A program made the translations under genes and the position numbers. Shown here one piece after another: positions 1,958 to 27,549 of a stretch of 32,301 nt of DNA (position 1 is the stretch's first letter; each line of letters opens with the position of its first letter). Where the stretch lies: positions 1 through 32,301 of the forward strand of contig DAOWEP010000023.1 in assembly GCA_030638455.1 (NCBI GenBank), written 5' to 3'. Under the pieces are notes generated by a model, which was given only the letters and a program-made list of their open reading frames with translations, had not been told where the DNA came from and did no database searches. The stretch is from Gammaproteobacteria bacterium (GTDB lineage: Bacteria; Pseudomonadota; Gammaproteobacteria; DAOWEP01).

Positions 1958-2326
1958 ATGGGTAAAACAATTTTAATAGTTGATGATTCAGATTCAATGA
2001 GACATGTGCTCGGGGTTACCTTGAGAAAGGAAGGATATGAAGTAATCGACGCTAAAGATGGTGTTGATGCCCTGGAAAAGCTTGATGGAACAAGGATCTC
2101 ATTGATTATCAGTGATATCAATATGCCGAATATGGATGGCATAACCTTTATTAAGGAGGTGAAAAAAATTTATGCGTACAGGTTTACGCCTATTTGTACG
2201 TTGACCACCGAAGGGGGAAGGAAAAGGATTGATGAAGGGAAGGATGCCGGTGCCAAGGCGTGGATGGTTAAACCGTTTGTGCCACAAAAATTACTCGAAA
2301 CCGTTTCAATGCTTGTGATGCCCTGA
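1958..2326 (+). CDS. cheY: CheY-like single-domain response regulator
   Basis: 122 aa. Receiver signature ILIVDDSD, SDINMPNMDG, TLTTEG, MVKPF. It is the first gene of the che cluster. Confidence 0.9.
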   Translation: MGKTILIVDDSDSMRHVLGVTLRKEGYEVIDAKDGVDALEKLDGTRISLIISDINMPNMDGITFIKEVKKIYAYRFTPICTLTTEGGRKRIDEGKDAGAKAWMVKPFVPQKLLETVSMLVMP

Positions 2327-2387
2327 TCTGGATTTTTATATTAAGAAGCGTATTAAAACAATTAATAAAGAAAGTGGAGAGAAGACT

Positions 2388-2720
2388 ATGTCTATCAAAA
2401 CGTATGCTCGGAATGGAAAGTGCAAAATCAAGGTGGAGGTTGACATGACCATCTACACAACAGCGGATCTAATGCCGAAGATATTAAAGAGCCTGGATAA
2501 ACACAAGGAATTGGTTATAGATTTGTCTGATGTATTTGAGATTGATACATCAGGCATTCAGCTTCTTGAATTCATAAAACGTGAAGCCAGGCGAGATAAT
2601 AAAGTATTCAGCATGGTTTCTCATAAAGAGAACGTGCTGGATGTGTTTCATCTTTACCGATTGAATGGCCAATTGGATGCGATACCGGATAATTCTGTAT
2701 CGGAAATTAAGGTTGCCTAG
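2388..2720 (+). CDS. STAS-domain protein (anti-sigma-factor-antagonist fold)
   Basis: 110 aa. VIDLSDVFEIDTSGIQLL matches the SpoIIAA/RsbV-type DLSxVxFIDSSG segment, including the Ser/Thr position. It lies between cheY and cheA. Confidence 0.75.
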   Translation: MSIKTYARNGKCKIKVEVDMTIYTTADLMPKILKSLDKHKELVIDLSDVFEIDTSGIQLLEFIKREARRDNKVFSMVSHKENVLDVFHLYRLNGQLDAIPDNSVSEIKVA

Positions 2721-2731
2721 GTATCGCCTTC

Positions 2732-4960
2732 ATGAATGAAGAAATACAGGAAAGCATCCAGGTATTTGTTTCCGAGGCGGGGGAATTGCTTGACGAGATG
2801 GAATCTGCTCTTCTTGTGCTGGAAGAAGACCCCTCTCATGAAGGACATATTAATACCGTATTCCGGGCCGTTCATACCATAAAAGGTTCAGCCGGACTTT
2901 TTTCATATGATCATATTGTGGATTTCTCCCACCATGTTGAAAGTGTTCTGGACAGGGTGCGTGACGGGCAACAGAAAATTACCAGTGAATTACTGTCCAT
3001 ATTGCTGGCTTGTCATGACATTCTGGAAAATCTTGTGCAAGCCGCTGTCAATGATCAGGGTGCGGGTGATGAAGAAGTACAGGAAAGAACACGCGGGATT
3101 GCTGGACAGCTTGAACAATATCTTGGAGAAAGTGCATGTGCGGTGGATGAGAATCCTATGGTTAGCCATGAAGTACTACAGATTGATGACCAGATATCAG
3201 GAATAGAGCTGGGTAGTAATTGGCATATATCTCTACGCTTTGGTCCTGATGTACTGCGCAATGGCATGGATCCCTTGTCCTTTATGCGTTATCTCTCCAG
3301 GCTTGGTGAGGTCGTCCAGATTCTTCCTGTTTGGGATGATATGCCCGGCAGGGGCGAGATGGAGCCTGAAAGTTGCTATCTGGATCTTGAGATCGAATTC
3401 AAAAGTGATGCGGACAAGGTAACCATTGAAAATGTATTTCAGTTCGTCAAGGACGACTGCAAGGTAACCATTCTTCCGCCACTCACCCGCCATTCTCTTT
3501 ATAAGGAAGCAATTGAAGATCTTCCTGGTGAGCCAATGCGCCTTGGCGATATCCTGGTTGAAAGTGGTGCGGTAACAGAACGTGAGCTCAAAGAGGCTCT
3601 GGAAGTCCAGCAGAGTGAAGTGGATCAGGCTGAGCTCAAGATGGAAAATATTTCAAAAACTCCAATCGGTGAAGTCCTGATACATAAAGGATCCGTACAT
3701 CCTGAGTTGGTCAATGCGGCAGTAAATAAGCAGGCAAAGAACAAAGGATCGCCAGAAAAAACCATTCGCGTAAGTGCCGATAAGCTGGAGTCTCTTATTA
3801 ACCTTATGGGCGAACTGGTGATATCCACTGCAAACATAGCCTTGCTCGCAAATCTCACAAGAAAAGATACGCTGAATGATGCGTTAATTGAGGCCACTGA
3901 AAATATGGGGCAACTGGTCGATGGGGTTCGTGATGCGTCGCTTGGCTTGCGTATGGTGCAAATTGGCGAAACGTTTTTTCGATTTCGTCGTATTGTGAGA
4001 GATGTGTCTCATAAATCATGTAAGGATATCGAGCTCAAGATCAGTGGTGGTGAAGCTGAGCTAGATAAAACAGTTATTGAGAAAATATCAGATCCGCTTT
4101 TACATCTGGTTCGTAACGCAATAGATCATGGTATTGAGTCAACGGAAACACGCCATAAAACCGGTAAGCCAAAAAAAGGTTTGTTACATCTTAGTGCATC
4201 ACATGATTCGGGCGGTATTGTAATTAAGGTAAGTGATGATGGCTGTGGATTATCGCACGAGAAAATACTTGCAAAGGCACAAGACCTGGGCCTGGTTAAA
4301 GACAATCAGAAGCTTTCTGACCAGGAGGTATATCGCCTGATATTCGAGCCTGGATTTTCAACAGCAGAGCAGGTAACTGATCTTTCCGGGCGTGGAGTCG
4401 GGATGGATGTAGTCAGGCGCAATATTGAAGCACTGCGTGGACATGTCGATGTCGAAAGTCAGCCGGGAAAAGGCACCAGTTTTAGTATTCACCTGCCATT
4501 AACACTGGCGATTATCGATGGTTTTCTGGTCAGGGTTGGTAAGTCTTTTTATGTGATCCCGCTGGATATGGTGGAAGAATGTACAGAATTGCCAGAGGAG
4601 TTCCAGAATGCCAGTCAACTAAATAGCTATATGGACTTGCGTGGAGAAGTTTTGCCATTTATCCATCTCGCAGAGCTGTTTCAGGAAAAAAATGTGCGAT
4701 CAGGACGCGAAAATATCGTGGTAGCAAAGTTCGCAGGTCAGAAGGCTGGTCTGGTTGTGGATGAATTGCATGGTGAGTACCAGACAGTTATCAAGCCGTT
4801 GGGAAAAGTTTTTAGACAACTTCATGGTATCAGCGGGGCAACTATTCTGGGTAGCGGGAAAGTTGCCATGGTTATTGATGTGCCTGCATTGGTGAAAACG
4901 GCCGCTTCTGGGGCATTTGAACATGGTCGTTTCAGTAGCAATTCAGAAGTGCTTAATTGA
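2732..4960 (+). CDS. cheA: Chemotaxis histidine kinase CheA (P1 Hpt, P2-like region, inserted MshEN-like double motif, P3, P4, P5)
   Basis: 742 aa. Hpt site VHTIKGSAGLF. ATP-binding core HLVRNAIDHG, DDGCGL, GRGVGMDVV. C-terminal CheW-like domain (GFLVRVGKSFYVIPLDMV). No C-terminal receiver. Confidence 0.95.
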   Translation: MNEEIQESIQVFVSEAGELLDEMESALLVLEEDPSHEGHINTVFRAVHTIKGSAGLFSYDHIVDFSHHVESVLDRVRDGQQKITSELLSILLACHDILENLVQAAVNDQGAGDEEVQERTRGIAGQLEQYLGESACAVDENPMVSHEVLQIDDQISGIELGSNWHISLRFGPDVLRNGMDPLSFMRYLSRLGEVVQILPVWDDMPGRGEMEPESCYLDLEIEFKSDADKVTIENVFQFVKDDCKVTILPPLTRHSLYKEAIEDLPGEPMRLGDILVESGAVTERELKEALEVQQSEVDQAELKMENISKTPIGEVLIHKGSVHPELVNAAVNKQAKNKGSPEKTIRVSADKLESLINLMGELVISTANIALLANLTRKDTLNDALIEATENMGQLVDGVRDASLGLRMVQIGETFFRFRRIVRDVSHKSCKDIELKISGGEAELDKTVIEKISDPLLHLVRNAIDHGIESTETRHKTGKPKKGLLHLSASHDSGGIVIKVSDDGCGLSHEKILAKAQDLGLVKDNQKLSDQEVYRLIFEPGFSTAEQVTDLSGRGVGMDVVRRNIEALRGHVDVESQPGKGTSFSIHLPLTLAIIDGFLVRVGKSFYVIPLDMVEECTELPEEFQNASQLNSYMDLRGEVLPFIHLAELFQEKNVRSGRENIVVAKFAGQKAGLVVDELHGEYQTVIKPLGKVFRQLHGISGATILGSGKVAMVIDVPALVKTAASGAFEHGRFSSNSEVLN
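3539..3733 (+). other. Two MshEN/T2SSE_N-type 24-residue motifs inside CheA (aa 270-293 and 311-334)
   Basis: The motifs are RLGDILVESGAVTERELKEALEVQ and PIGEVLIHKGSVHPELVNAAVNKQ. The published MshEN c-di-GMP motif is RLGxx[LVI][LVI]xxG[LVI][LVI]xxxxLxxxLxxQ. Motif 1 fits at every fixed position except one (Ala for L/V/I). Confidence 0.6.
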
Positions 4961-5047
4961 GCGTGTTGGATAGTTACATATTGTTTAATTAAACCGGAAT
5001 ATATTTTATGGCGGTATCCGCCTGCTAAGGACATAAATGGAGTTTCT

Positions 5048-8000
5048 ATGAAGACAGTGTCACAAAAAGCCAGTAACGAAGTACAGGTAGAAGAAGGTAT
5101 GTTACTTGTAGTGAGGAGTGATGATAAAGGCATTGTTACCTATGCTAGCGATGACTTTATTAAGATTAGTGGTTTTGAAAGTAGTGAGCTTATCGGGGAA
5201 TATAATATTGCGATTCATCATCCGGATATGCCAGCAGAAGTTTGTGAGGAACTTTGGTTGACGATAAGTTCCGGAAAGCCCTGGATAGGGCTGATTAAAG
5301 AATCTTGCAAGAATGGTGATTACTATTGGGTGGAGAAAAATATAACTCCAGTGTTTAAACAAGGACGCATTATCGAATACTTGTCAGTGTCTACCAAACC
5401 TACTCGTGAACAGATTGCTGAGGCCGAGCTGTGGTACCAACAAATCAGAGCAGGAAAAAAACCAAAAAATAAATTATATGAAAGGCTAAATGTATTTCGA
5501 GACCTCAAGATAGGGCAAAAACTGGGTTTCGTGAGTATTATATTCTTGTTGTTGATCACAGTTTTATCTGTGGATTTAGTGCTGACAAGGAATGAGGCCA
5601 TTAATTTCGCAGAGCAGGAAATAAACGGGGTGAGATACCTGAGGCCAGTGAGAAAGCTCCTGCAAAATATCCTTCAGCATCGAGGGCGGGTCGCTGCCTA
5701 TCTTAACGGTCACAACCCCCTTCAATCCGGTATTCTAGAAGCGCATCATGAAATTGATAAAAATTTACAGGCTATCGCGGTAGTGGATCAGGAGCTTGGT
5801 GAACAGCTAGATACCACCATAATATTGAAGGCCGTAACAGAAAAATGGCACTCCCTCAAGAAACAGGGCCTTGATCTGAATTATAAGGAAAGTTTTGCAC
5901 GTTATACAGCTCTTCATAAAGATATTGTCAAACTAGCTACCCAGGTACGAGACACTTCAGGTCTCATACTGGATGGAGAGCTGGACACTTATTACCTTAT
6001 GGATCTGGCAGTAAACTGGGTTACTGATATTACCGAGAGGTTGGGTCAAAACAGAGGGGTTGGTTCCGGAATTATCAGTCGAGGTCACTTTGATGATGGG
6101 GAGCGGGAAAAAATGATCGTGTTACGGGCATTAATGCAGTCTGGCTCGGCAGGTCTGGCTCATGCGCTCGAACATACTTCCAATGTCAATCGATCAAGCG
6201 TGCAGGTACAGGATTTATTCAAGTCAATAGAAATCTTTGATGCTCAGATTAGAACTCTCATCAAAGGCAACATCAATGACCTCAACACAAGTGATTATTT
6301 TGCGGCGGGCACACGGGCGGTAGATAACATTTTTACCCTGTACGATGTCTCGTCGCAGATTTTGATAGAGAAACTACAGGAAAGAGCGGATCGCCTGTCT
6401 CGTAATATTCTCCTGGTTATGCTTTTTGTTCTTGCAGGCGCGTTTTTATCTGTTCTAGTGAGTATTGGAGTTACGAAAAATATTGTTCGTTCTTTGAGGA
6501 AAGCTGTCTGGCATTTTAACCGGATTTCTGAAGGCAGCTATCAAGAAGAAATTGATATCAAGAAAGGAGACGAGATTGGTGATTTGTTGCGTGGTCTTAA
6601 GTCCATGCAGGTAAATCTTGCATTTAATATTAATAAGGAAAAGGAAAGCGCGCATGGTATGCGGCGTATCAAGACAGCACTAGATCAGGTGGCTACCGGA
6701 GTGATGATGTCAGATAAAGATCGCAATATTATTTATATGAACAAGGCCGTTAAGAAGATGTTTGAAGATGCTCAGGAAGATATCCGTAATGAGTTGCCGT
6801 GCTTCGATGTAGATAAACTAATGGGATCATGCATTGATCAATACCATAAAAATCCAGCTCATCAGATTGATGTGTTGGGGGAAATGAATGAACCAAACAG
6901 TGGATCCATTATGCTGGGTGGTCATACTTTCAAGGTAAATATGACACCTGTATTTGATGATCTTGGGGAGCGCCTGGGTACTGCCATTGAATGGATGGAT
7001 AGTACATCTGAGGTGGCAGTAGAGAATGAGATTGACTCGATTATTGAAGCAGCTGGAAACGGCGATTTCTCTCAACGGATTTCACTTGATGGAAAGGAAG
7101 GCTTCTTCGAGAAACTGGCCAGGGGCATCAATAAGATCATAAGTACCAGTGATTCAGGATTAAATGATGTGGCCAGGATTATTCGTGAACTGGCGTCGGG
7201 TGACTTGAGACACACAATGGATAAAGATTATGAGGGTATCTTTGGGGAGCTCAAGAATGATGTAAATTCAACTATTACCAAGTTGTCTGAGGTCATAAGT
7301 GAAGTAAGTAGTAACGCGAATATGATTTCAAGTGCCTCAGAGCAATTAAGTGCAACCGCCCAGACATTAAGTCAGGATACCAGTAATCAGGCGTCCAGCG
7401 TTCAGAAAACCAGCGCATCTATTGAAGAGATGATCGCATTGATTAGCCAAAATAGTGAAAACGCAAAGATCACGGACAGTATAGCAATGGAAGCATCTAC
7501 ATCTGCAAAGGAAGGGGGATATGCGGTGCTGGATACTGTTGATGCTATGAATAGCATCGCTGACAAAATCGGAGTTATTGAAGAAATAGCCTATCAGACG
7601 AACATGCTGGCATTGAATGCAGCAATAGAAGCGGCCAGGGCAGGTGCACAGGGAAAAGGGTTTGCGGTTGTTGCTACTGAGGTTCGGAAACTGGCTGAGC
7701 GCAGTCAGGTTGCTGCCCAGGAAATCGGTAGTTTGGCAGCAGATAGTGTAAAGATTGCAGGAAAAGCAGGGGACATGCTCGAGCAGATAGTGCCAAATAT
7801 TGCCAAAACTGCAGATTTGGTGCAGGAGATTTCTGCTTCATCTGAAGAGCAGGCAGCAGGTGTTGGTCAAATTAGCAATGCGATGTACCAGCTCGATCAT
7901 CTGACACAAAAAGGATCATCCAGTGCTGAAAATCTTGCATCAACTTCAATTGAATTGCGTGGCCAGGCAGAACAACTAAATCAAATGATGTCGTTTTTCT

Positions 8001-8224
8001 CGCTAAGAAAAAAATACAGAATGTTAGATCAAGAGAGTACTAAGAGTACTAGTGGAGACAGAAGGTCAGCGTCTGTTGTCAGTACTTTGCAAATTCCAGA
8101 TCCAAAAGAAAATATTAGCATATCAGCGGAAAATGGTGCGCAGGGTACAGATGACCAGGAAAAGCGTGACATTCTTGAGATTGAACAGGGCGACTCAAGT
8201 GAAGTTGATTTCGAGAGATTCTAG
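5048..8224 (+). CDS. Methyl-accepting chemotaxis protein. Order of domains: Aer-type N-terminal PAS, TM1, about 270-aa periplasmic helical (NIT-like) domain, TM2, HAMP, second PAS, further HAMP-like repeats, MA signalling domain.
   Basis: 1058 aa. The N-terminus aligns with E. coli Aer PAS as I recall it ([28 protein letters not shown]...KNGDYYWV). TM segments are [20 protein letters not shown] and [39 protein letters not shown] resembles the NIT motif. The hairpin tip is [41 protein letters not shown]. Confidence 0.95.
8207..8221 (+). other. C-terminal pentapeptide DFERF of the MCP: candidate CheR/CheB tethering site at the end of a long low-complexity tail
   Basis: The last five codons, gat ttc gag aga ttc, precede the tag stop. 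This fits the aromatic-x-x-Phe shape of NWETF-type pentapeptides. It is preceded by a roughly 85-residue Ser/Asp/Glu/Gln-rich tail that follows the signalling domain. Confidence 0.5.
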
Positions 8225-8240
8225 CAAGGGATATGGCGTT

Positions 8241-8804
8241 ATGTCACCAGTAGCACATGTAACCACAGATGATGACTCAGGAGCTGATCAGATAGAGAGT
8301 CAAAACCAGTTTCTAAGCTTCAGGTTGGCAGATGAGGTATATGCAATTGATCTTATGAGCCTCAAAGAGATTATTGGATACGGTGATTTGACAAGTGTTC
8401 CTATGATGCCGGGCTTTATACGTGGGGTAATAAACTTGCGTGGAAGAGTTGTTCCTGTCGTGGATCTAGCAGAGAGGCTTGGTGGTCAGAAGACAGAGGT
8501 TAGGAAAAGGACCAGTATTATTATCGTGGAGATTTTTGATGAAAGTGATGACGAGAGAATTGATATTGGCATCATAGTCGATAGTGTGAATGAAGTTCTT
8601 GATATTTGCCCGGATGATATTGAGCCGCCTCCGAGTTTCGGTGCAAAGATTCGTACTGATTTTATTGAGGGGATGGGAAAGGTAGACGGGAAATTCCTGG
8701 TGTTACTTGATATAGGGAACATTCTTTCAATTGAAGAATTGTCCATGTTGAATGATGTAAATGTAGGGGTTAAGGAACCTGCCAGGAAACCGGAGACAGA
8801 ATAA
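8241..8804 (+). CDS. cheW: CheW coupling protein
   Basis: The track ORF starts at 8052 but overlaps the MCP 3-prime end. An in-frame ATG at 8241 follows the MCP stop (8222-8224). FLSFRLADEVYAIDLMSLKEII..VPMMPGFIRGVINLRGRVVPVVDL is a typical CheW sequence. Confidence 0.9.
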   Translation: MSPVAHVTTDDDSGADQIESQNQFLSFRLADEVYAIDLMSLKEIIGYGDLTSVPMMPGFIRGVINLRGRVVPVVDLAERLGGQKTEVRKRTSIIIVEIFDESDDERIDIGIIVDSVNEVLDICPDDIEPPPSFGAKIRTDFIEGMGKVDGKFLVLLDIGNILSIEELSMLNDVNVGVKEPARKPETE

Positions 8805-8805
8805 T

Positions 8806-9684
8806 ATGGTTAATGTACCAGACAAACTTACTGCTATCGGTAATCATAACTCGGTATATTCTGATGTTGTAAAGGAGTTTGTATGTGAGATAAAGGATGA
8901 TGAATTCCTGCGGATAAGGAATTATTTATACATGGAATCAGGGATTCACCTGGGGGTGGATAAAAAACAAATGATGGCAACTCGTCTTGCGAGCCGTTTA
9001 AGACATTTTAACGTGCACACATATAGTGAATATCTTCGCCTGGTGATGGATGGGGATCATGATGAAGAAAAGCAGGAGATTGTCGACCTGCTAACCACGC
9101 ATGAAACATATTTTTTCAGAGAGCCAGCCCACTTTGATTTTCTAAGGGAACGAATTTGCGAGAATTGGGAATATGGGAGGCTATTTCGCGCATGGAGTGC
9201 AGCCAGCTCTTCCGGAGAAGAAGCATATAGTATGGCCATGGTGTTTTCAGAACACCTGCCGCAAAATTACTGGGAGTTGGTTGGGTCTGATATATGCAGA
9301 GAAGTGCTGGAGAAGGCGCGTGCTGGATACTATCCAGTAGAAAAAACACAAAATATACCCGTTAACTATCTCAGTCAATATTGCCTGAAAGGTGTACGTT
9401 CACAAAACGGAGTTATGCTAATAGACGAGAATCTCCGTAAGCGGGTTCAATTCATAAAAGTAAACCTTAATCAATCATTTGAAGGTTTTCTTGGAATGTT
9501 TGATGTGATCTTTTTGAGAAATGTTCTTATCTATTTTGACCTTCATGCAAGACAACAAATCGTGCATCGTATCGTTGAGAAGCTGAATAAAGGTGGCTAC
9601 TTGTTTGTCAGTCATACGGAATCAATTATTGCTATTAGTGACCGACTTCAGCAAGTAGCGCCAAGTATTTATCAAAAAATATAG
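8806..9684 (+). CDS. cheR: Chemotaxis methyltransferase CheR
   Basis: 292 aa. THETYFFRE and SAASSSGEEAYS (SAM-binding region) are present. The ATG lies one nucleotide after the cheW stop. Confidence 0.9.
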   Translation: MVNVPDKLTAIGNHNSVYSDVVKEFVCEIKDDEFLRIRNYLYMESGIHLGVDKKQMMATRLASRLRHFNVHTYSEYLRLVMDGDHDEEKQEIVDLLTTHETYFFREPAHFDFLRERICENWEYGRLFRAWSAASSSGEEAYSMAMVFSEHLPQNYWELVGSDICREVLEKARAGYYPVEKTQNIPVNYLSQYCLKGVRSQNGVMLIDENLRKRVQFIKVNLNQSFEGFLGMFDVIFLRNVLIYFDLHARQQIVHRIVEKLNKGGYLFVSHTESIIAISDRLQQVAPSIYQKI

Positions 9685-9741
9685 TTATTAATATTAGAAG
9701 GATAATCGAAACAAATAAATGAGTGATGGTTATTGACTGTT

Positions 9742-10890
9742 ATGGATAAGAAAAAAAACAAAATTAAAGTATTGTTGGTGGACGACTCTGCAGTTGTAAG
9801 GCAATCGCTATCCAGGGTATTTGCTACTGCACCAGATATTGAAATTATTGGTAGTGTTATAGATCCACTTTTTGCACTGGAGCGAATGAAGCAGCAATGG
9901 CCTGATGTAATTGTGCTGGATATTGAAATGCCACGCATGGACGGAATAACTTTTCTGAATATTATTATGAAAGAACACCCAACTCCTGTAGTAGTTTGTT
10001 CGGCGCTGACCGCGAAAGGAGCAGAAACCACATTGCAGGCCCTCTCTTTAGGTGCTGTGGAAGTTATTAACAAGCCTGCCATTGGCGTAAAGGATTTTTT
10101 GAGGGAATCAGCGGAGTTTCTGATTGATGCTGTGAGAGCAGCTTCATGTTCTGATCTGAAAAAACTACAAGATAATTCAAATAAAAAAATTGAGATAAAT
10201 TCAAGTTCTGTAGAAGATGCCGTTTTCTCCAATGATTTACAGGGTTCAATGAATAATACAACTGACAAGGTAGTTGCCATAGGGACATCAACAGGAGGTA
10301 CGCAGGCACTTGAGCTGATTCTTCCCGCATTACCAAGAGTTGTACCTGGTATTGTGGTTGTTCAGCATATGCCAGAAAAGTTCACCCGATCTTTTGCTGA
10401 AAGACTTAATTCATTGTCCCGAATTAATGTAAAGGAGGCGGAGGATAATGACCGCGTATTACCTGGTGTGGCCCTGATTGCACCGGGTGGACGTCATATG
10501 GTTTTAGTCAGAAGTGGGGCACATTACCATGTAAAGATTCATGATGGACCACCTGTAAACAGGCATCGACCTTCAGTTGATGTGCTGTTCAGGTCAGTAG
10601 CGAAGGTGGCCGGTAAGAATTCATATGGCATTATATTAACAGGTATGGGTGATGATGGTGCAAGAGGGCTAAAAGAAATGCAGGATGTTGGCGCCAGTAC
10701 CGTTGCTCAGGATGAGTCTACCAGTATCGTTTTTGGTATGCCAAGGGAGGCAGTGAAGCATGGAGGTGTACAAACTGTTTTGCCGTTACAGGAAATACCA
10801 GGGTCAATTATCAGAAACCATTCTGACTCAGTTGATATGCAGCAGAAATCATGCCTGGTAAATAGTTGCAGAGAAGTATGTAGTAAGTAA
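9742..10890 (+). CDS. cheB: Chemotaxis methylesterase CheB (REC plus esterase)
   Basis: Receiver [21 protein letters not shown]. Esterase GTSTGG, VVVQHMP, GMGDDG. The track start 9733 is TTG; the ATG at 9742 is preferred. It has an unusually long linker and a 25-30 aa Cys-containing C-terminal tail. Confidence 0.9.
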
Positions 10891-15059: not shown

Positions 15060-15938
15060 TTGGGAAATTTAACGATCAATCAACTGGACAATGAGATCCA
15101 GCAGTTACCATCACTATCCGTGATAGTGATGGAGGTATTATCGATGATTGAAAAAGGGAATGTAGATCTGACTGTGCTTATGAACAAGATAGGGCAGGAT
15201 CAGGCATTGGCAGCACGTGTACTTAAAGTCGCTAACTCTCCTTTTTACGGATTCTCAAGAAATATAGCATCACTCAAGGATGCCGGAATTATGTTAGGGA
15301 TTCATACACTTCAACATATAGTGACGGCCGCTGGAATTATTGGCCACTTTAGTACCGAAAGGAATCTAAACTTCAGCCATGCAGCATTCTGGCAGCACTC
15401 AATCGGAACGGGTATTTGTGCCAAGGTGCTGGCCCGTCATAGCGCTCTTGATCAGGAAACTGCATTTACGGCAGGTTTGCTTCATGATATTGGTAAGCTG
15501 GTCCTGGCGGTACATTTTCCAAATGATTTTTTACGGATACTGGAATATAGGGATGAGCATGATTGCTTGCTTAAGGATGCAGAAAAAGCCGTACTGGATT
15601 TTGATCATAGTATTATTGGAGCCAAAATAACAGAGCACTGGAAGCTTCCAGATCTCATTATTTCATCAATCAGGTATCACCATACACCTGATGCTGAGTC
15701 TGTATTGCCGCTTGCTGGCCTGGTTCATATTGCCGATATTATTTGCCGTGGCATGGAGATCGGTAATGGTGGCGATACATTGATCCCTGTAATCAGTAGT
15801 GGCGTAATGGAAGATCTTGGTCTGGATTGGGATGCCGTTAAGAACAGTTTACCTGAAATCGAAAAATTGAATGCTTCCGCAAACGTTCTCGTAGAGCAGG
15901 ATGATATTAACACATTTGATAAATGTGGAGGTGTGTGA
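15060..15938 (+). CDS. HDOD-domain protein
   Basis: 292 aa with a TTG start. LPSLSVIVMEVLSMI..LMNKIGQDQALAARVLKVANSPFYGF..GLLHDIGKLVLA is a typical HDOD sequence. Confidence 0.85.
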   Translation: MGNLTINQLDNEIQQLPSLSVIVMEVLSMIEKGNVDLTVLMNKIGQDQALAARVLKVANSPFYGFSRNIASLKDAGIMLGIHTLQHIVTAAGIIGHFSTERNLNFSHAAFWQHSIGTGICAKVLARHSALDQETAFTAGLLHDIGKLVLAVHFPNDFLRILEYRDEHDCLLKDAEKAVLDFDHSIIGAKITEHWKLPDLIISSIRYHHTPDAESVLPLAGLVHIADIICRGMEIGNGGDTLIPVISSGVMEDLGLDWDAVKNSLPEIEKLNASANVLVEQDDINTFDKCGGV

Positions 15939-17047
15939 TGTTAGAAACAATATTGCTGGTTGATGATGAAATAGCTAATCGTAATGCAATCAAGCGAGTC
16001 TTGCGCCACACAGGGTTGAATTTCCTGGAGGCTGGGAATGGAAAGGATGCCCTGGAAATTGTTGATGAAATTCCTGTGGATCTGGTTCTCCTGGATATTG
16101 GTATGCCGGTTATGGATGGCTACAAGTTTCTTGAAAGATTCAAATCACGAGACTGTAATCAGGAAATTCCAGTGTGCGTGATGACAGCCTGGTCCGATAA
16201 TGAAACTCGTAAAAGGGTGATTGACCTTGGCGCAGATGATTTTGTTGGTAAACCAGCAGATAGAGTTGAGTTGGAAACACGTGTCAAGGCATTGCTACGT
16301 ATTCGCGGATATCAGAAGCGTTTGCTTGATTTTAATAACAAACTTGAAAATCTTGTTGAAGAGCGTACACGTGATTTACGCATCGCATATGTACACCTTG
16401 AAGAGTCTCGTGAAGAAACCATGCTTGCCTATCATGACACTATTATGCGGCTTTCTCTGGCGGCAGAACATAAAGACAGGGTGACGGCTGCTCATATACA
16501 ACGTATGAGCCATTACTCTGAATTGCTTGCTCTTAAATGTGGATGGGGAGAAGAAGATGCAAGTCTTTTGCTGGAAGCGGCAAAAATGCATGATATTGGG
16601 AAGATCGGAATCCCTGATGCGATTCTTAATAAACCTGGCAAGTTAACCAGTGGAGAATTCGAAACTATGAAGATGCACTGTGAGATTGGTGCTTCAATCC
16701 TTTCGGGGTCTGATTCCAGGTTGCTGCAGATGGCTGAATCGGTAGCGAAAAGCCATCATGAGAGGTTCGATGGTACAGGCTACCCATATGGTATGTCAGG
16801 AATGATAATACCTGAAGTGGGCCGCATTGTAGCAATTGCAGATGTATTTGATGCATTGATGACCTCCAGACCATATAAGGAAGCCTGGCCTTTAGAAAAA
16901 GTATGTAGTGTGATGCAGGAAGACAGCGGTAAGCATTTTGATCCTGATCTTTTGGAGTTGTTTTTTGATGATGTTCAGGTTTTGCTAAAGATCCATAATC
17001 GCTATTCAGATGAAGAAACGGTTTCTATGAATATAGAAGTAGCTTGA
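15938..17047 (+). CDS. RpfG-type response regulator: REC plus HD-GYP c-di-GMP phosphodiesterase domain
   Basis: The ATG at 15938 overlaps the HDOD stop (tgATG) and has GGAGG 5 nt upstream. LLVDDE, LLDIGMPVMDG, KMHDIGKIGIPD, HHERFDGTGYPYG are present. The track start 15923 lies inside HDOD. Confidence 0.9.
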   Translation: MLETILLVDDEIANRNAIKRVLRHTGLNFLEAGNGKDALEIVDEIPVDLVLLDIGMPVMDGYKFLERFKSRDCNQEIPVCVMTAWSDNETRKRVIDLGADDFVGKPADRVELETRVKALLRIRGYQKRLLDFNNKLENLVEERTRDLRIAYVHLEESREETMLAYHDTIMRLSLAAEHKDRVTAAHIQRMSHYSELLALKCGWGEEDASLLLEAAKMHDIGKIGIPDAILNKPGKLTSGEFETMKMHCEIGASILSGSDSRLLQMAESVAKSHHERFDGTGYPYGMSGMIIPEVGRIVAIADVFDALMTSRPYKEAWPLEKVCSVMQEDSGKHFDPDLLELFFDDVQVLLKIHNRYSDEETVSMNIEVA

Positions 17048-21924: not shown

Positions 21925-23262
21925 ATGGGTGCGATAATGAATAATGCAGATACCATAATACAAGAACAGACATTTTCCGAGTCACTGTTGTTTGTTGATG
22001 ATGAGGAAAGCATTCTTTCTTCATTGAAACGGCTATTTAGGCCATTGGGTTACCGCATCTTTACGGCCCAGAGCGGGGCAGAGGGGCTGGATATTATGAA
22101 AAAAGAGGAGATTGATCTGGTGGTATCAGATATGCGGATGCCTGAAATGGATGGCGCACAGTTTCTTGAAAATGTAGCGGCCAACTGGCCTAAAACAGTG
22201 CGTATTCTTCTGACAGGTTATGCAGATATTACATCCACTGTTGCAGCAATTAATAAGGGGAAAATATACAGTTATTTCAGTAAACCCTGGGAAGATAATG
22301 ACATTGCTCTGTCCATACGCCATGCGCTGAACGTAAAGGATCTGGAAGAGGAAAGAGACGGTCTCCTTGAAATGATATTGGTCAAGAATGAAAAACTGAA
22401 AGAGCTGAATGAAAGTCTTGAAGACAAGGTAGAACAGCGAACCGCAGAACTCAAGCAGGCCTTTCTCAAGCTCGAAAAGTCTCATGAGTCACTTAAAATG
22501 GGTTATTTCGCAACGGTTAAAAGTTTTTCCAGCTTGATTGAGATGCGTGAAGGTGCAGTCGCGGGTTACTCACGTCGCATTGCAGATCAGGCACGAAAGC
22601 TGGCACTGAAAATGGAGATGAGTAATGCCGATGTTCAGGATGTTCTCTATGCATCGTTACTACATGATATAGGTAAAATCGGAATGCCTGATCATCTTTT
22701 TAACAAACCATTTAATGCGCTTAGCCCTGAAGATAAAGTGACTGTCTGTAAACACCCTGTTATAGGTCAGGGAGTTATGATGGCATGGGGATCTCTGGAG
22801 GGCGTTGCAAGGATTATTCGTAGTCATCGTGAATGCTACGATGGTTATGGTTATCCGGACTCTCTGAAGGGAATAGAAATTCCATTGGGGGCAAGAATTC
22901 TATCCGTTGTAAGTGATTTTGAAGCATTAAGGATTGGGAAGCTGGCATCACAAAAGTATTCTGCTTTGGAAGCACAGGAATATCTTATCAGGCATCGTGG
23001 TAAACGATATGATCCTGATGTTGTTGACGCATTTTTGAATATGGATTCCAGTCATCAGCCAACACCACAAAATCAGGAGCTGAAGATTTCTTTAAAGTCC
23101 CTGGTGCCAGGTATGGTTCTATCAAAAGATGTGATGTTGAAAGACGGAGTACTGTTATTGTCTGAGGGCCGTATTCTAGATAAAAGAAATATCGAGGAGC
23201 TCCGGGATATGGAGAAATCTCTGAATGAGAATCTGGATATCCATGTATTAATGAAAGGGTAA
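21925..23262 (+). CDS. Response regulator: REC, HD-GYP, C-terminal LxPGxxLxxDV module
   Basis: 445 aa (alternative ATG at 21937). LLFVDDEESIL, SDMRMPEMDG, YSYFSKPW, LLHDIGKIGMPD, HRECYDGYGYPD. Confidence 0.9.
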   Translation: MGAIMNNADTIIQEQTFSESLLFVDDEESILSSLKRLFRPLGYRIFTAQSGAEGLDIMKKEEIDLVVSDMRMPEMDGAQFLENVAANWPKTVRILLTGYADITSTVAAINKGKIYSYFSKPWEDNDIALSIRHALNVKDLEEERDGLLEMILVKNEKLKELNESLEDKVEQRTAELKQAFLKLEKSHESLKMGYFATVKSFSSLIEMREGAVAGYSRRIADQARKLALKMEMSNADVQDVLYASLLHDIGKIGMPDHLFNKPFNALSPEDKVTVCKHPVIGQGVMMAWGSLEGVARIIRSHRECYDGYGYPDSLKGIEIPLGARILSVVSDFEALRIGKLASQKYSALEAQEYLIRHRGKRYDPDVVDAFLNMDSSHQPTPQNQELKISLKSLVPGMVLSKDVMLKDGVLLLSEGRILDKRNIEELRDMEKSLNENLDIHVLMKG

Positions 23263-23366
23263 TAATTCGATGTTCAGGATTCTGGTTATTAATTATGAAG
23301 GGAAAAAAGTTGGTTAGACCATGAGTGATGAAGACATACAGGACGAAGGAAGCGAGTAAAGCAGCC

Positions 23367-24041
23367 ATGTCTGAATTCAATGAAAAAAAGAACAAGATTA
23401 CACTAAAGCTGGTGTATTACGGCCCTGCGCTTAGTGGAAAGACAACGAACCTGATGAGCTTACATGACATACTTAGTCCTGAGCTTAAAGGAGAGATGAT
23501 GGTGCTGGAAACCAAGGACGACCGAACCCTGTTTTTTGATCTTTTGCCAATGGGGATTACTGCGCCATCAGGTTTGTTGATAAAACTGAAGTTGTTTACG
23601 GTGCCGGGACAAGTTGCACATGATAGTACCAGAAAAGCAGTTCTGTCACGTGCAGATGGTGTAGTGTTTGTAGCGGACTCCCAGAAAACGCAAAGCATTA
23701 ATAATGCAGAATCATTTGAAAATCTTGTAGGTAATATTGCCAGGGTAGGATTGGATATTGAAAAGCTACCATTGGTTGTTCAGTTTAATAAACGTGATCT
23801 ATCAGATATCTTGACCGAGGATGAAATTAGAACCCGCTGGAAAGACGCTCATTGGCCGTTATTATTTAGTACTGCATTGCAGGGATCTGGTGTAGAAGAG
23901 ACATTAAGTGAATTGTTATCACTTGTCTATGACGCATTGGATGAGGAGTATGGCCTTAATGAGCGGCATAATCTGGATAAGGATTTGTTTGTATCAGGTG
24001 TGACGGGTTGTGAGTTCTCAAAAGCGGTCAATGGAGGATAA
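23367..24041 (+). CDS. mglA: MglA-family Ras-like small GTPase with a roughly 35-aa C-terminal extension
   Basis: Taken from the internal ATG at 23367 (MSEFNEKK..). It matches Myxococcus MglA as I recall it. P-loop: YYGPALSGKTTN here, YYGPGLCGKTTN in MglA. Switch 1: DDRTLFFDLLP here, TDRTLFFDFLP in MglA. TVPGQV, VFVADSQ and QFNKRDL also match. Confidence 0.85.
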   Translation: MSEFNEKKNKITLKLVYYGPALSGKTTNLMSLHDILSPELKGEMMVLETKDDRTLFFDLLPMGITAPSGLLIKLKLFTVPGQVAHDSTRKAVLSRADGVVFVADSQKTQSINNAESFENLVGNIARVGLDIEKLPLVVQFNKRDLSDILTEDEIRTRWKDAHWPLLFSTALQGSGVEETLSELLSLVYDALDEEYGLNERHNLDKDLFVSGVTGCEFSKAVNGG

Positions 24042-25305: not shown

Positions 25306-27549
25306 ATGGGAAATTATTCATCATTATTTACAGATGTTTCAGATGACAAAGAAGATGACTCGATAGGAAATCCTGTATTTGAAGGCTATCAAATTCTTTT
25401 TGTCGATGATGAGAAGAATGTGCTCAACTCGCTTAAACGTGTTTTTCGACAGGAAAATTATCGGATACTAACGGCTGTAGATGGAGAAGAGGCACTGGAA
25501 ATACTGGGCCGTGAAAAATGCCAGCTTATGATCTCGGATTACATGATGCCGAAGATGGATGGTGCCGAGCTCTTGCGAGAGGTTAAGAAAAACTATCCCG
25601 ACATGATACGTATTATGCTGACAGGCCACGCAGATATGAATGCTGTTCTGGCCGCGGTGAGGGATGGTGCTGTATATAAGTTTATTCTGAAGCCCTGGAA
25701 CGATGATGACATACGCGTGACTGTAGCGTTGGCACTGGAGCAATATGATTTAATACAGAATAACAAGATATTGATAAAGCAGAACAAGGAAAAGAGCGAG
25801 GAGATCAGCTCTCTGGCAAAGCTTGCCGTAACCAATCGTAGTCAGCTTGCCATTATGTTGCATAAGCGAAATCTTCTGAATGAGAAGCAGGTTCAGGAGC
25901 TGTACAAGCAGCAACAAGTCAATAAAGAGCCAATCTTTAAGATTATTCTTGAACGTGATTGGGTTAGTGAGGATAAAATACGCAATATTCTTCGTAAAGA
26001 TCTGATGGTTGAGGAAGTATCACTGGATGAAATCCAGGTAGATGCTTCAGTTGCTTCGCTAATTCCGCATAGTCTATGTAAACAACAATCAGTGTTACCG
26101 ATAAGGGAGAGTAACCGGCGCTTGACATTGGTAATGGCAGACCCGATGGATATGGGGCTAATTGATGACTTGAGTTTTACTACGGGTCTTGAGATCCAGG
26201 CCGTGATGGCTAATGTTTCAGATATAAAAAAGAAGATTGCTGAAATTTATGGACAAGATGATAGTTCTTTTACTGAAATTGAAACGCTGATTGGGCTAGC
26301 AGATCCTTTTGAAGGTATCGAAGTTCTTATTGAGGATGACGATGACATTTCTATTGAAGAATTACTTCATGGTACAGATGAGCCTCCTGCTATACGATTG
26401 GTCAACGCAATTATAATTGAGGCTATTCGTCTGCGTGCAAGCGATATTCATATTCAGCCGCGAACAAAAAGTGTAATGGTGCGCTACCGTATTGATGGTG
26501 TTTTGCATGACAAGATTCAGGTGCCACATAGCATGCACATGTCTTTGGTTGCCCGTATCAAAGTAATGGCTGAGCTGGATATTACAGAACGTCGTCGACC
26601 TCAAGACGGGCGAATAACAGTAAAAACACCCATGCGCATTGTTGACTTGAGAATTTCTTCGTTGCCTACCATTAGTGGTGAGAAGATTGTCATGCGTATA
26701 TTGGACCGAAATTCATCTGTACTAAAGATGGAACGCTTGAGTATGTCTGATATGAATCTGAAAAAAATTACTAATGTCGCATGTAGGCCACAAGGGCTTA
26801 TTCTTGCAACAGGTCCTACAGGTAGTGGCAAGACCACCACGCTTTATTCCATGTTGCAGCATGAGGCCACCCCTGAAAAGAACTATGTCACTATTGAGGA
26901 TCCTGTTGAGTATTATATGGATATGGCTGGCCAGGTAATGATAAAAGATAAAATTGGTCTGGATTTTTCGAGTGTATTGCGCGCCATTCTACGTCAGGAT
27001 CCAGATGTGATTTTATTGGGTGAGATTCGTGATTATGAAACTGCGGAGGTAGCCCTTAATGCGGCATTGACAGGGCATTTAGTATATTCAACATTGCATA
27101 CTAACTCCGGAGTGGCAACTATTGCGCGCCTGTTTGACCTGGGACTGAAGCCCTTTGTGCTAGCCTCAGCACTGGAGGCTATTATTGCACAGAGATTGGT
27201 TCGGAAAATATGTGAGGATTGCAGTGAATCGGTATCTGTAGATTCTGATGTACTGTATAAACTAGGCCCTGTTTTCCAGTCATCAAAAATTGAAACATGC
27301 AAAGGTAAAGGCTGCCCCAAGTGCAATAACACTGGTTATTCGGGCCGGGTTGCGATTTATGAAGTATTGATTCCAAGTGAAAAGATGCGCCACCTGATAT
27401 CTTCAGGTGCCAGTATTCATGAGATTACAAATCTGGTCAATGAAGAAGGCATGGTTACGCTAATTGAGGATGCCCACGATAAAGTTAGTATGGGCCTGAC
27501 TACAATAGAAGAAGTATTTCGTGTTTTAGGCCCACAAGTTATTGATTGA
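25306..27549 (+). CDS. PilB/GspE/MshE-family secretion ATPase with an N-terminal receiver: REC, T2SSE_N-like domain, AAA+ ATPase with a tetracysteine motif
   Basis: 747 aa. REC: LFVDDEKNVL, SDYMMPKMDG, YKFILKPW. Walker A GPTGSGKTTT. VTIEDPVEY. Walker B DPDVILLGEIRD. His box TGHLVYSTLHTN. CEDC..CPKC. Confidence 0.9.
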   Translation: MGNYSSLFTDVSDDKEDDSIGNPVFEGYQILFVDDEKNVLNSLKRVFRQENYRILTAVDGEEALEILGREKCQLMISDYMMPKMDGAELLREVKKNYPDMIRIMLTGHADMNAVLAAVRDGAVYKFILKPWNDDDIRVTVALALEQYDLIQNNKILIKQNKEKSEEISSLAKLAVTNRSQLAIMLHKRNLLNEKQVQELYKQQQVNKEPIFKIILERDWVSEDKIRNILRKDLMVEEVSLDEIQVDASVASLIPHSLCKQQSVLPIRESNRRLTLVMADPMDMGLIDDLSFTTGLEIQAVMANVSDIKKKIAEIYGQDDSSFTEIETLIGLADPFEGIEVLIEDDDDISIEELLHGTDEPPAIRLVNAIIIEAIRLRASDIHIQPRTKSVMVRYRIDGVLHDKIQVPHSMHMSLVARIKVMAELDITERRRPQDGRITVKTPMRIVDLRISSLPTISGEKIVMRILDRNSSVLKMERLSMSDMNLKKITNVACRPQGLILATGPTGSGKTTTLYSMLQHEATPEKNYVTIEDPVEYYMDMAGQVMIKDKIGLDFSSVLRAILRQDPDVILLGEIRDYETAEVALNAALTGHLVYSTLHTNSGVATIARLFDLGLKPFVLASALEAIIAQRLVRKICEDCSESVSVDSDVLYKLGPVFQSSKIETCKGKGCPKCNNTGYSGRVAIYEVLIPSEKMRHLISSGASIHEITNLVNEEGMVTLIEDAHDKVSMGLTTIEEVFRVLGPQVID

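Follow-up and report, generated by a model that had tools for sequence, protein, structure and literature searches.

In the Vibrio cholerae ATPase MshE, cyclic di-GMP (c-di-GMP) is bound by MshEN, whose N-terminal subdomain, MshEN_N, is a four-helix bundle carrying two 24-residue motifs. In each motif the polar contacts are made by the backbone amides of Gly3 and the following residue and by Gln24, while leucines stack on the guanines (PMC5013675). Isolated MshEN_N binds c-di-GMP without MshEN_C, with a dissociation constant (Kd) of 0.35 µM (PMC5013675). MshEN has also been reported fused to the kinase CheA (Wang et al. 2016, Nat Commun 7:12481). We analyzed a stretch of 32,301 nucleotides from a gammaproteobacterial assembly (GCA_030638455.1, contig DAOWEP010000023.1), referred to here as the window, in which cheA lies at 2732..4960 on the plus strand. 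The open reading frame (ORF), Pfam matches and an AlphaFold2 (AF2) model describe a 742-amino-acid CheA with the order P1(Hpt)-P2-MshEN_N insert-P3-P4-P5; both motifs and the spacer between them occupy 3539-3733. As the best explanation overall, and one that we hold to be somewhat better than even, we infer that MshEN_N in CheA would bind one c-di-GMP across both motifs and may thereby tune kinase output, binding as well as the direction and site of any effect being part of this inference.

The closest described relative is the CheA of Aeromonas veronii. Supplementary Table 4 of Wang et al. 2016 holds the same CheA architecture under 'MshEN_N only, no T2SSE_N1 domain', and Supplementary Fig. 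3c of that paper aligns A. veronii CheA residues 260-342. A CheA-MshEN architecture is therefore not new; the window CheA is a further case of a catalogued architecture, and one that is also flagged by a curated NCBI hidden Markov model (HMM). The A. veronii protein has an identical domain order, with its insert at 260-342 compared to 262-342 in the window CheA, and its flanks (LPE... and SKSKE.RYVRVHA) are those of two homologues of the window protein, P0013 and P0018, so that the family is clearly orthologous. As in the window family, its motif II starts with [PK]LG and its spacer exceeds 5 residues. Motif I starts with MLG in A. veronii and with RLG in the window protein, which is the more canonical of the two, and the window cheA lies in a different and much larger signalling gene block.

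The better studied binders, MshE and the Thermus thermophilus ATPase PilF, are more distant. The CheA insert shares with V. cholerae MshE (MshEN, 5HTL) the two 24-residue motifs, the four-helix bundle, Gly3, Gln24 and the hydrophobic positions. It differs in lacking MshEN_C and the T2SSE ATPase, in a spacer of 17 rather than 5 residues, in a Pro in motif II, in an acidic rather than basic flank, and in its host, a histidine kinase. In PilF (6F8L, 8PDK; PMC11731258), GSPII-C is the best match to the insert profile, and both have Pro at position 1 of motif II. GSPII-B and GSPII-C have a regulatory role at the N-terminus of a pilus ATPase and, unlike the CheA insert, include a C-terminal alpha/beta subdomain.

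Translation of 3539-3733 (+) gave RLGDILVESGAVTERELKEALEVQ / QSEVDQAELKMENISKT / PIGEVLIHKGSVHPELVNAAVNKQ. Motif I (residues 270-293, 3539..3610, +) is predicted to form alpha1-alpha2 and aligns with positions 1-26 of the NCBIfam c-di-GMP_motif model. Compared with the 11 fixed positions of RLGxx[LVI][LVI]xxG[LVI][LVI]xxxxLxxxLxxQ, hereafter the strict pattern, it matches 10, the sole mismatch being Ala at position 11. Motif II (residues 311-334, 3662..3733, +), predicted to form alpha3-alpha4, keeps Gly3, Gly10 and Gln24. The 17-residue spacer (3611..3661, +) is modelled as an extension of alpha2 followed by a loop to alpha3, with the AF2 helix running from 283 to 302. The preliminary description had read these elements from the sequence exactly, both in the position of motif I and its single deviation and in the second copy with its Gly, Gly and Gln and the length of the spacer. 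When the CheA sequence was shuffled, a site with at most one strict mismatch arose in 0 of 20,000 sequences and a match to the relaxed pattern of Wang et al. in 16 of 20,000; in the six-frame translation of the window the relaxed pattern occurs once. The double motif is not a product of chance.

A profile of the insert, built from 37 non-redundant homologue inserts, was compared with all Protein Data Bank (PDB) sequences, and the top 13 matches were all MshEN/GSPII domains. T. thermophilus PilF ranked first (6f8l, E = 4.8e-13), its best stretch, GSPII-C 302-360, spanning both motifs. It was followed by PilB (5zfr, 5tsg and 6olj; E = 3e-8 to 2e-6, with 3.3e-8 for 5zfr), V. cholerae MshE (5htl, E = 4.4e-4) and the PilF c-di-GMP-binding domain (8pfa and 8pdk, E = 2e-3 to 5e-3). 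The curated NCBIfam model NF053729.1 c-di-GMP_motif ('cyclic di-GMP-binding domain-containing protein, MshE-related'; 53 positions, cut-off 38 bits) gave 39.9 bits with the full CheA as query and 46.4 bits with the segment by itself, both above the cut-off. An AF2 model made from the insert alignment had four helices, a mean predicted local distance difference test (pLDDT) score of 86.6 and a predicted template modelling score (pTM) of 0.70. The best PDB match of this model in Foldseek was c-di-GMP-bound MshE (5htl; root mean square deviation (rmsd) 1.3 Å over 68 columns, query-normalized TM-score (TMq) 0.67), followed by c-di-GMP-bound PilF GSPII-B structures (8pdk/9glg) at 0.8-1.3 Å, and the top 12 matches were all of MshEN type. 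The preliminary description would have given up its motif call had the two motifs been unable to pack as in MshEN; in the model they do pack in that way.

Helical linkers rich in Leu, Glu and Gln can mimic amphipathic motifs, and with the Pfam MshEN model silent on this protein we considered whether an ordinary helical P2-P3 linker might resemble MshEN by chance, a reading to which we give practically no weight. It is ruled out by the shuffles, by profile matches that are exclusively MshEN/GSPII, by the NF053729 score, by the superposition and by the family-wide conservation described below. On homology, fold, conservation and position, it is strongly supported that residues 270-334 are a true MshEN_N module, equivalent to the four-helix subdomain at the N-terminus of the GSPII domains of MshE, PilB and PilF. 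In other CheA lineages, too, the module has this position immediately before P3, and one of these proteins, P0309, has the canonical 5-residue spacer and scores 87.8 bits.

Conservation was assessed in a set of the 120 best-matching CheA homologues, which, the self-match excepted, are 52-61% identical to the window CheA; no other database sequence exceeds 61% identity to it. Both motifs are found at the same place in 119 of the 120. In motif I, G272, T282, E285, L290 and Q293 are invariant in these 119; in motif II, G313 is kept in 119 and A330 and Q334 in all 120, while the surface positions around Gly3 and Gln24 vary freely. Because the spacer ranges from 5 to 47 residues across the 119 homologues, it is best read, from the alignment, as a variable alpha2-alpha3 loop. 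The single homologue that lacks the insert, P0010 (692 amino acids, from an Acidiferrobacteraceae metagenome-assembled genome), shows a clean deletion of alpha1-alpha3 that leaves an alpha4 remnant, MHPELVETAVKKQ. Either the module was lost naturally in this protein or the assembly is faulty.

The same kind of module was also encountered in other proteins. In a search of proteins with the 79-residue insert profile, the matches were short stand-alone proteins of at most 151 amino acids only, a result without bearing on how CheA is distributed. In a representative search, two proteins of 780-1180 amino acids, P0222 and P0226, outscored every CheA with the insert profile. Each has an Hpt domain together with 7-11 MshEN_N-like repeats in tandem, and one of them also carries a dockerin and TSP3 repeats. 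This Hpt-(MshEN_N)n architecture was not found among those entries of Supplementary Table 4 of Wang et al. 2016 that were compared.

Several observations weigh against an intact c-di-GMP receptor in this CheA. Pfam MshEN (PF05157) and T2SSE_N did not match the CheA or the segment, which gave only a weak match to DUF4388. This miss is explained by the scope of PF05157, since that model matches the C-terminal alpha/beta subdomain that is absent from the CheA insert; in an ATPase encoded elsewhere in the window, the Pfam MshEN model covers residues 235-320, the C-terminal subdomain. The Foldseek E-values are weak (at least 0.07), which we attribute to the very small size of the domain. Motif II matches 6 of the 11 strict positions, with P for R, I for L, S for [LVI] and twice V for L, all conservative replacements, and departs from the relaxed pattern at Ser321 alone. 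Two matches to the relaxed regular expression occur in only 14 of the 120 homologues, and the turn residue Gly10 of motif II, though present in the window CheA, is found in just 54. Ahead of motif I the sequence is acidic (LPGEP in the window CheA; LPE[DE] as consensus), where MshE has a basic patch, and the 17-residue spacer departs from the 5-residue spacer and 53-residue unit by which MshEN is defined. GSPII-A of PilF has a near-perfect motif I and does not bind, owing to an N-cap, an elongated alpha1 and contacts between subdomains (PMC12002112). Full-text searches of the literature returned no study in which the binding or function of such a CheA was tested.

Some of these points would also suit a bundle that descends from MshEN_N and no longer binds nucleotide, acting instead as a rigid spacer or offering a surface where a partner docks, such as the adjacent STAS protein, an adaptor of PilZ type or a response regulator. 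The poorly conserved turn Gly of motif II, the relaxed pattern being missed at least once in most homologues, the acidic N-terminal flank and the non-binding GSPII-A all speak for such a bundle. XpsE/GspE has lost c-di-GMP binding (PMC5013675), the N-terminal domain of Xanthomonas citri PilB binds a PilZ protein, and a STAS gene invariably lies beside cheA of this type. The structures of that PilB domain (7lkm, 7lkn and 7lko) are among the Foldseek matches of the insert, but at 5 Å, so the model is nearest to ligand-bound MshE and PilF. The residues at which binding has been lost elsewhere are also the ones that this family retains. MshE G11L and G40I abolish c-di-GMP binding, and the non-binder XpsE carries G11V, G40L and Q61V (PMC5013675), substitutions exactly at Gly3 and Gln24, whereas these positions are invariant in 119-120 of the 120 CheA homologues. 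How such a site looks once degenerate can be seen in the same window, in the T2SSE ATPase at 25306-27549 (+), where Gly3 is replaced by Ala and Phe and Gln24 of motif II by Asp, and NF053729 gives 23 bits against its cut-off of 38. We therefore regard a bundle without nucleotide binding as the rather unlikely alternative.

The ATPase itself is a REC-MshEN-T2SSE protein of PilB/MshE type with canonical 5-residue spacing and degenerate motifs (QLA... and PIF...). An hhalign comparison of the insert profile with its residues 201-350 gave no significant match, this region being mostly MshEN_C plus the degenerate motif II. From the motif sequences, the intact c-di-GMP site of the cluster appears to be the one in CheA, and in the ATPase a receiver (REC) domain seems to have taken over from nucleotide control.

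The two features of the CheA site that depart most visibly from MshE, the long spacer and the Pro of motif II, can be judged against PilF. GSPII-C, with Pro at position 1 of motif II and a spacer of 7 residues, binds c-di-GMP with a Kd of ~460-500 nM, and GSPII-B, in which Lys and Leu replace both Arg, binds with a Kd of ~6 nM (PMC11731258). The Arg at position 1 of the motifs is thus dispensable, and Pro at position 1 of motif II is compatible with binding (PMC11731258). Because GSPII-C binds with the same Pro and a 7-residue spacer, neither the long spacer nor the Pro would, by analogy, disqualify the CheA insert. A 5-residue spacer is no absolute requirement, given the more than 5 residues in the A. 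veronii CheA alignment and the 7 of the binding-competent GSPII-C. The preliminary description had cautioned that a 17-residue spacer leaves binding unassured; the spacer stands as described, and the worry is weakened by the range seen in homologues and by GSPII-C. On balance, the window CheA probably binds c-di-GMP.

A related possibility is that the module binds another cyclic dinucleotide, such as 3'3'-cGAMP, or some other ligand. MshEN does bind cGAMP weakly (Kd 3.3e-4 M), and the two half-sites of the insert are non-equivalent, with Val for Leu at positions 17 and 21 of motif II and Pro at its start. The guanines, however, are read through backbone amides at Gly3 and the residue after it, which are conserved in both motifs, as is Gln24, and the gene cluster encodes HD-GYP proteins of c-di-GMP type and an HDOD protein but no cGAMP-related genes. 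We regard another ligand as highly improbable and take c-di-GMP as the candidate ligand in what follows.

The CheA that houses the module is otherwise conventional in its domain order. Its Hpt, H-kinase_dim, HATPase_c and CheW Pfam domains follow one another as in CheA, each above its cut-off, and the NCBIfam CheA models are its best matches, yet they score below their equivalog cut-offs. P1 (2756..3040, +) corresponds to the Pfam Hpt match at residues 9-103 (E = 3.8e-16), with the phospho-accepting His48 in HTIKGSAG, invariant in the 48 homologues compared. A short linker (3734..3757, +) separates the insert from P3 (3758..3943, +), the dimerization domain, which was recognized by Pfam H-kinase_dim at residues 343-400 and by AF2 helices at 349-375 and 382-404. 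It is followed by the ATP-binding kinase domain P4 (4091..4504, +; Pfam HATPase_c at residues 454-591, E = 4e-20; Foldseek matches to CheA P4 structures with rmsd 1.1-1.8 Å) and by P5, the CheW-like receptor-coupling domain (4520..4900, +; Pfam CheW at residues 597-723, E = 8.9e-27).

The full-length CheA was modelled separately, with a mean pLDDT of 82.4. The model places P1 at residues 3-131, a disordered linker at 134-157, a P2-like domain at 164-248 and a connecting helix at 251-262. The insert helices follow at 271-278, 283-302, 312-318 and 324-337 (pLDDT 92-96). Residues 340-352 are of low confidence or disordered (pLDDT <50), overlapping the start of the first helix of P3 (349-404), and P4 and P5 lie beyond 404. 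Foldseek of this model returned matches to P3-P5 only, including E. coli and T. maritima CheA (6s1k, 8c5v and 1b3q).

The P2-like domain (3221..3475, +) would correspond to the response-regulator-binding domain of CheA and is followed by the conserved connecting helix. It is modelled as a beta-alpha-beta-beta-alpha-beta fold with pLDDT 83-94. Pfam P2 (PF07194) matches it weakly, with E = 0.15 in the window CheA and matches in 14 of 26 homologues (best 2e-4), and a profile of the domain found no match among PDB sequences. From its weak Pfam matches and its position, the domain that precedes the insert is probably a divergent P2. The region from 3221 to 3517 (residues 164-262) is conserved to an unusual degree, with a mean column identity of 69%, compared to 48% for the insert and 62% overall, and contains 18 invariant residues. 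With P2 at 164-248 before the insert and H-kinase_dim from residue 343 after it, the location between P2 and the dimerization domain is borne out. In the AF2 model the P2-like domain runs into MshEN_N without a low-confidence linker, which suggests that the two may form a rigid unit. The connectors are also regular in length. Between the end of P2 and motif I lie 19 residues in 112 of the 120 homologues; between Q334 and the IRV start of P3 there are 13 residues in 112 of the 120 and 10 in the window CheA.

These features suggest how a ligand might act. In PilF, ligand binding unwinds one turn of alpha1 and reorients the subdomains (PMC11731258). In the CheA, MshEN_N without MshEN_C takes the place of the usual flexible P2-P3 linker, and a single c-di-GMP molecule would be held across both motifs. 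The backbone amides of Gly272/Asp273 and Gly313/Glu314 would contact the Hoogsteen edges of the guanines, Gln293 and Gln334 would contact ribose and phosphate, and the bases would be stacked against Leu, Ile and Val residues of the insert. The ligand may order or reorient the bundle and thereby change how P1 and P2 are presented to P4 or to response regulators, an effect that we propose because the connectors to P2 and P3 have fixed lengths. The outcome would be a kinase output tuned in one direction or the other, in a pathway, not of E. coli type, of the order REC-STAS-CheA-MCP-CheW-CheR-(CheD)-CheB (MCP, methyl-accepting chemotaxis protein).

In the window, this chemosensory core spans 1958-10890 in the order REC-STAS-CheA-MCP-CheW-CheR-CheB. 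A CheY-like single-domain response regulator (1958..2326, +; Pfam Response_reg) and a STAS protein, anti-sigma-factor-antagonist-like (2388..2720, +; Pfam STAS), directly precede cheA, and the order REC-STAS-CheA is conserved in five related loci, L003-L007. A PAS-NIT-HAMP-PAS MCP, CheW, CheR and CheB follow at 5048..10890 (+), all recognized by Pfam. The start of the CheW ORF (8052-8804) is probably annotated too far upstream, as it encodes 250 amino acids from a GTG start and overlaps the MCP gene by 170 nt, compared to homologues of 180-190 amino acids. In its gene order, in having a STAS gene and in its multi-PAS/HAMP receptor, the core resembles clusters of the ancestral F7 (or F8) chemosensory class, which are of Aer2 type and include an anti-sigma-factor antagonist (Ortega et al. 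2020).

The region upstream of the core differs from that of the related loci. A receptor with MCPsignal only (~400-430 amino acids) lies directly upstream of the REC gene in L003-L007; it is missing in the window, where an ORF-free repeat region (765-1957) stands instead. Within this 1.2-kb region upstream of the che operon is a nested inverted-repeat element of ~320 nt (1145-1467), with outer arms of 62 nt (77% complementary) and two inner hairpins with stems of 23-24 nt (88-96%) and loops of 50 nt. An Rfam scan of the window, this element included, gave no match. The element could be regulatory or resemble a miniature inverted-repeat transposable element.

The core is the first part of a co-directional block on the plus strand, 1958-27549, that comprises 19 signalling genes in ~25 kb. 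CheB is followed by REC, a hybrid histidine kinase (HK) with three REC domains, REC-PAS, HDOD, REC-HD-GYP, REC-HK, HK and GAF-PAS-HK, and then by a second REC-HD-GYP (HRECYDGYGYP), a small Ras/Arf-like GTPase (23325-24041), HK and the REC-MshEN-T2SSE ATPase. Besides CheA the block holds six histidine kinases, and nine further proteins contain REC domains. As the preliminary description had stated, two HD-GYP phosphodiesterases and an HDOD protein belong to the cluster, on Pfam and motif evidence. The HDOD protein is encoded at 15060..15938 (+; E = 2.3e-57), and the first REC-HD-GYP phosphodiesterase at 15923..17047 (+; Pfam Response_reg and HD_5), with HD and HHERFDGTGYP intact. Its true start is likely 15938, the closest homologues having 369 amino acids. 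The second REC-HD-GYP (21925..23262, +; Pfam) has HRE for HHE in the HHExxDGxxGYP signature, a variant that may affect metal binding or catalysis.

The feedback loop within one operon that was suggested on the strength of these genes is not supported as stated. The HD-GYP genes lie ~11 kb downstream, are syntenic only in a close relative and are absent near distant homologues. Downstream of the MCP gene the block recurs, gene for gene, in a metagenomic contig that is related to the window, L008 (1-21038), where the HD-GYP protein is 76% identical, and at L003, whose CheA belongs to a clade at 61% identity, an HDOD gene is also present downstream. The distant homologues that keep the insert, L004-L007, have the core MCP-REC-STAS-CheA-MCP-CheW-CheR-CheD-CheB with no HD-GYP gene nearby, and the next HD-GYP homologue inspected (L009) is unlinked to che genes. 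Because HD-GYP is syntenic in L008 and absent in L004-L007, the idea of a closed loop, itself speculative, is specific to a narrow lineage. In its full form, in which c-di-GMP would gate CheA autophosphorylation or phosphotransfer and the same phosphorelay would control both REC-HD-GYP proteins, so that the cluster would set as well as read local c-di-GMP, we consider it doubtful. One of the distant loci, L007, is a complete MCP-REC-STAS-CheA(MshEN_N)-MCP-CheW-CheR-CheD-CheB cluster on a plasmid of the cultured Pseudomonas sp. HR96 (NZ_CP139142, 40626-49437). The plasmid is 180 kb and non-mobilizable, and may offer a tractable system.

Signalling by c-di-GMP reaches chemotaxis by several described routes, including MapZ-CheR1 in P. 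aeruginosa, the PilZ chemoreceptors Cbp1/Tlp1, PlzC-CheX in V. cholerae and YcgR. The messenger also binds CckA, in the CA domain of a kinase that is not a CheA. MapZ-CheR1, Cbp1/Tlp1, PlzC-CheX and CckA couple c-di-GMP to chemosensory or kinase output, the chemotaxis routes by way of PilZ adaptors or receptor C-termini, and none does so via a receptor module within CheA. The prediction has stood in a supplementary table since 2016, and structural, profile and conservation evidence for an intact site is added to it here. The module would be relevant to a large and widespread CheA clade of hundreds of sequences, including Aeromonas and a Pseudomonas plasmid, and its constant spacing from P2 and P3 makes it plausible that kinase output is affected mechanically. 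If the proposal is true, a receptor module in the central kinase would link c-di-GMP to chemotaxis as directly as is possible, and gating by it would be the first case shown in which a second messenger acts on CheA itself.

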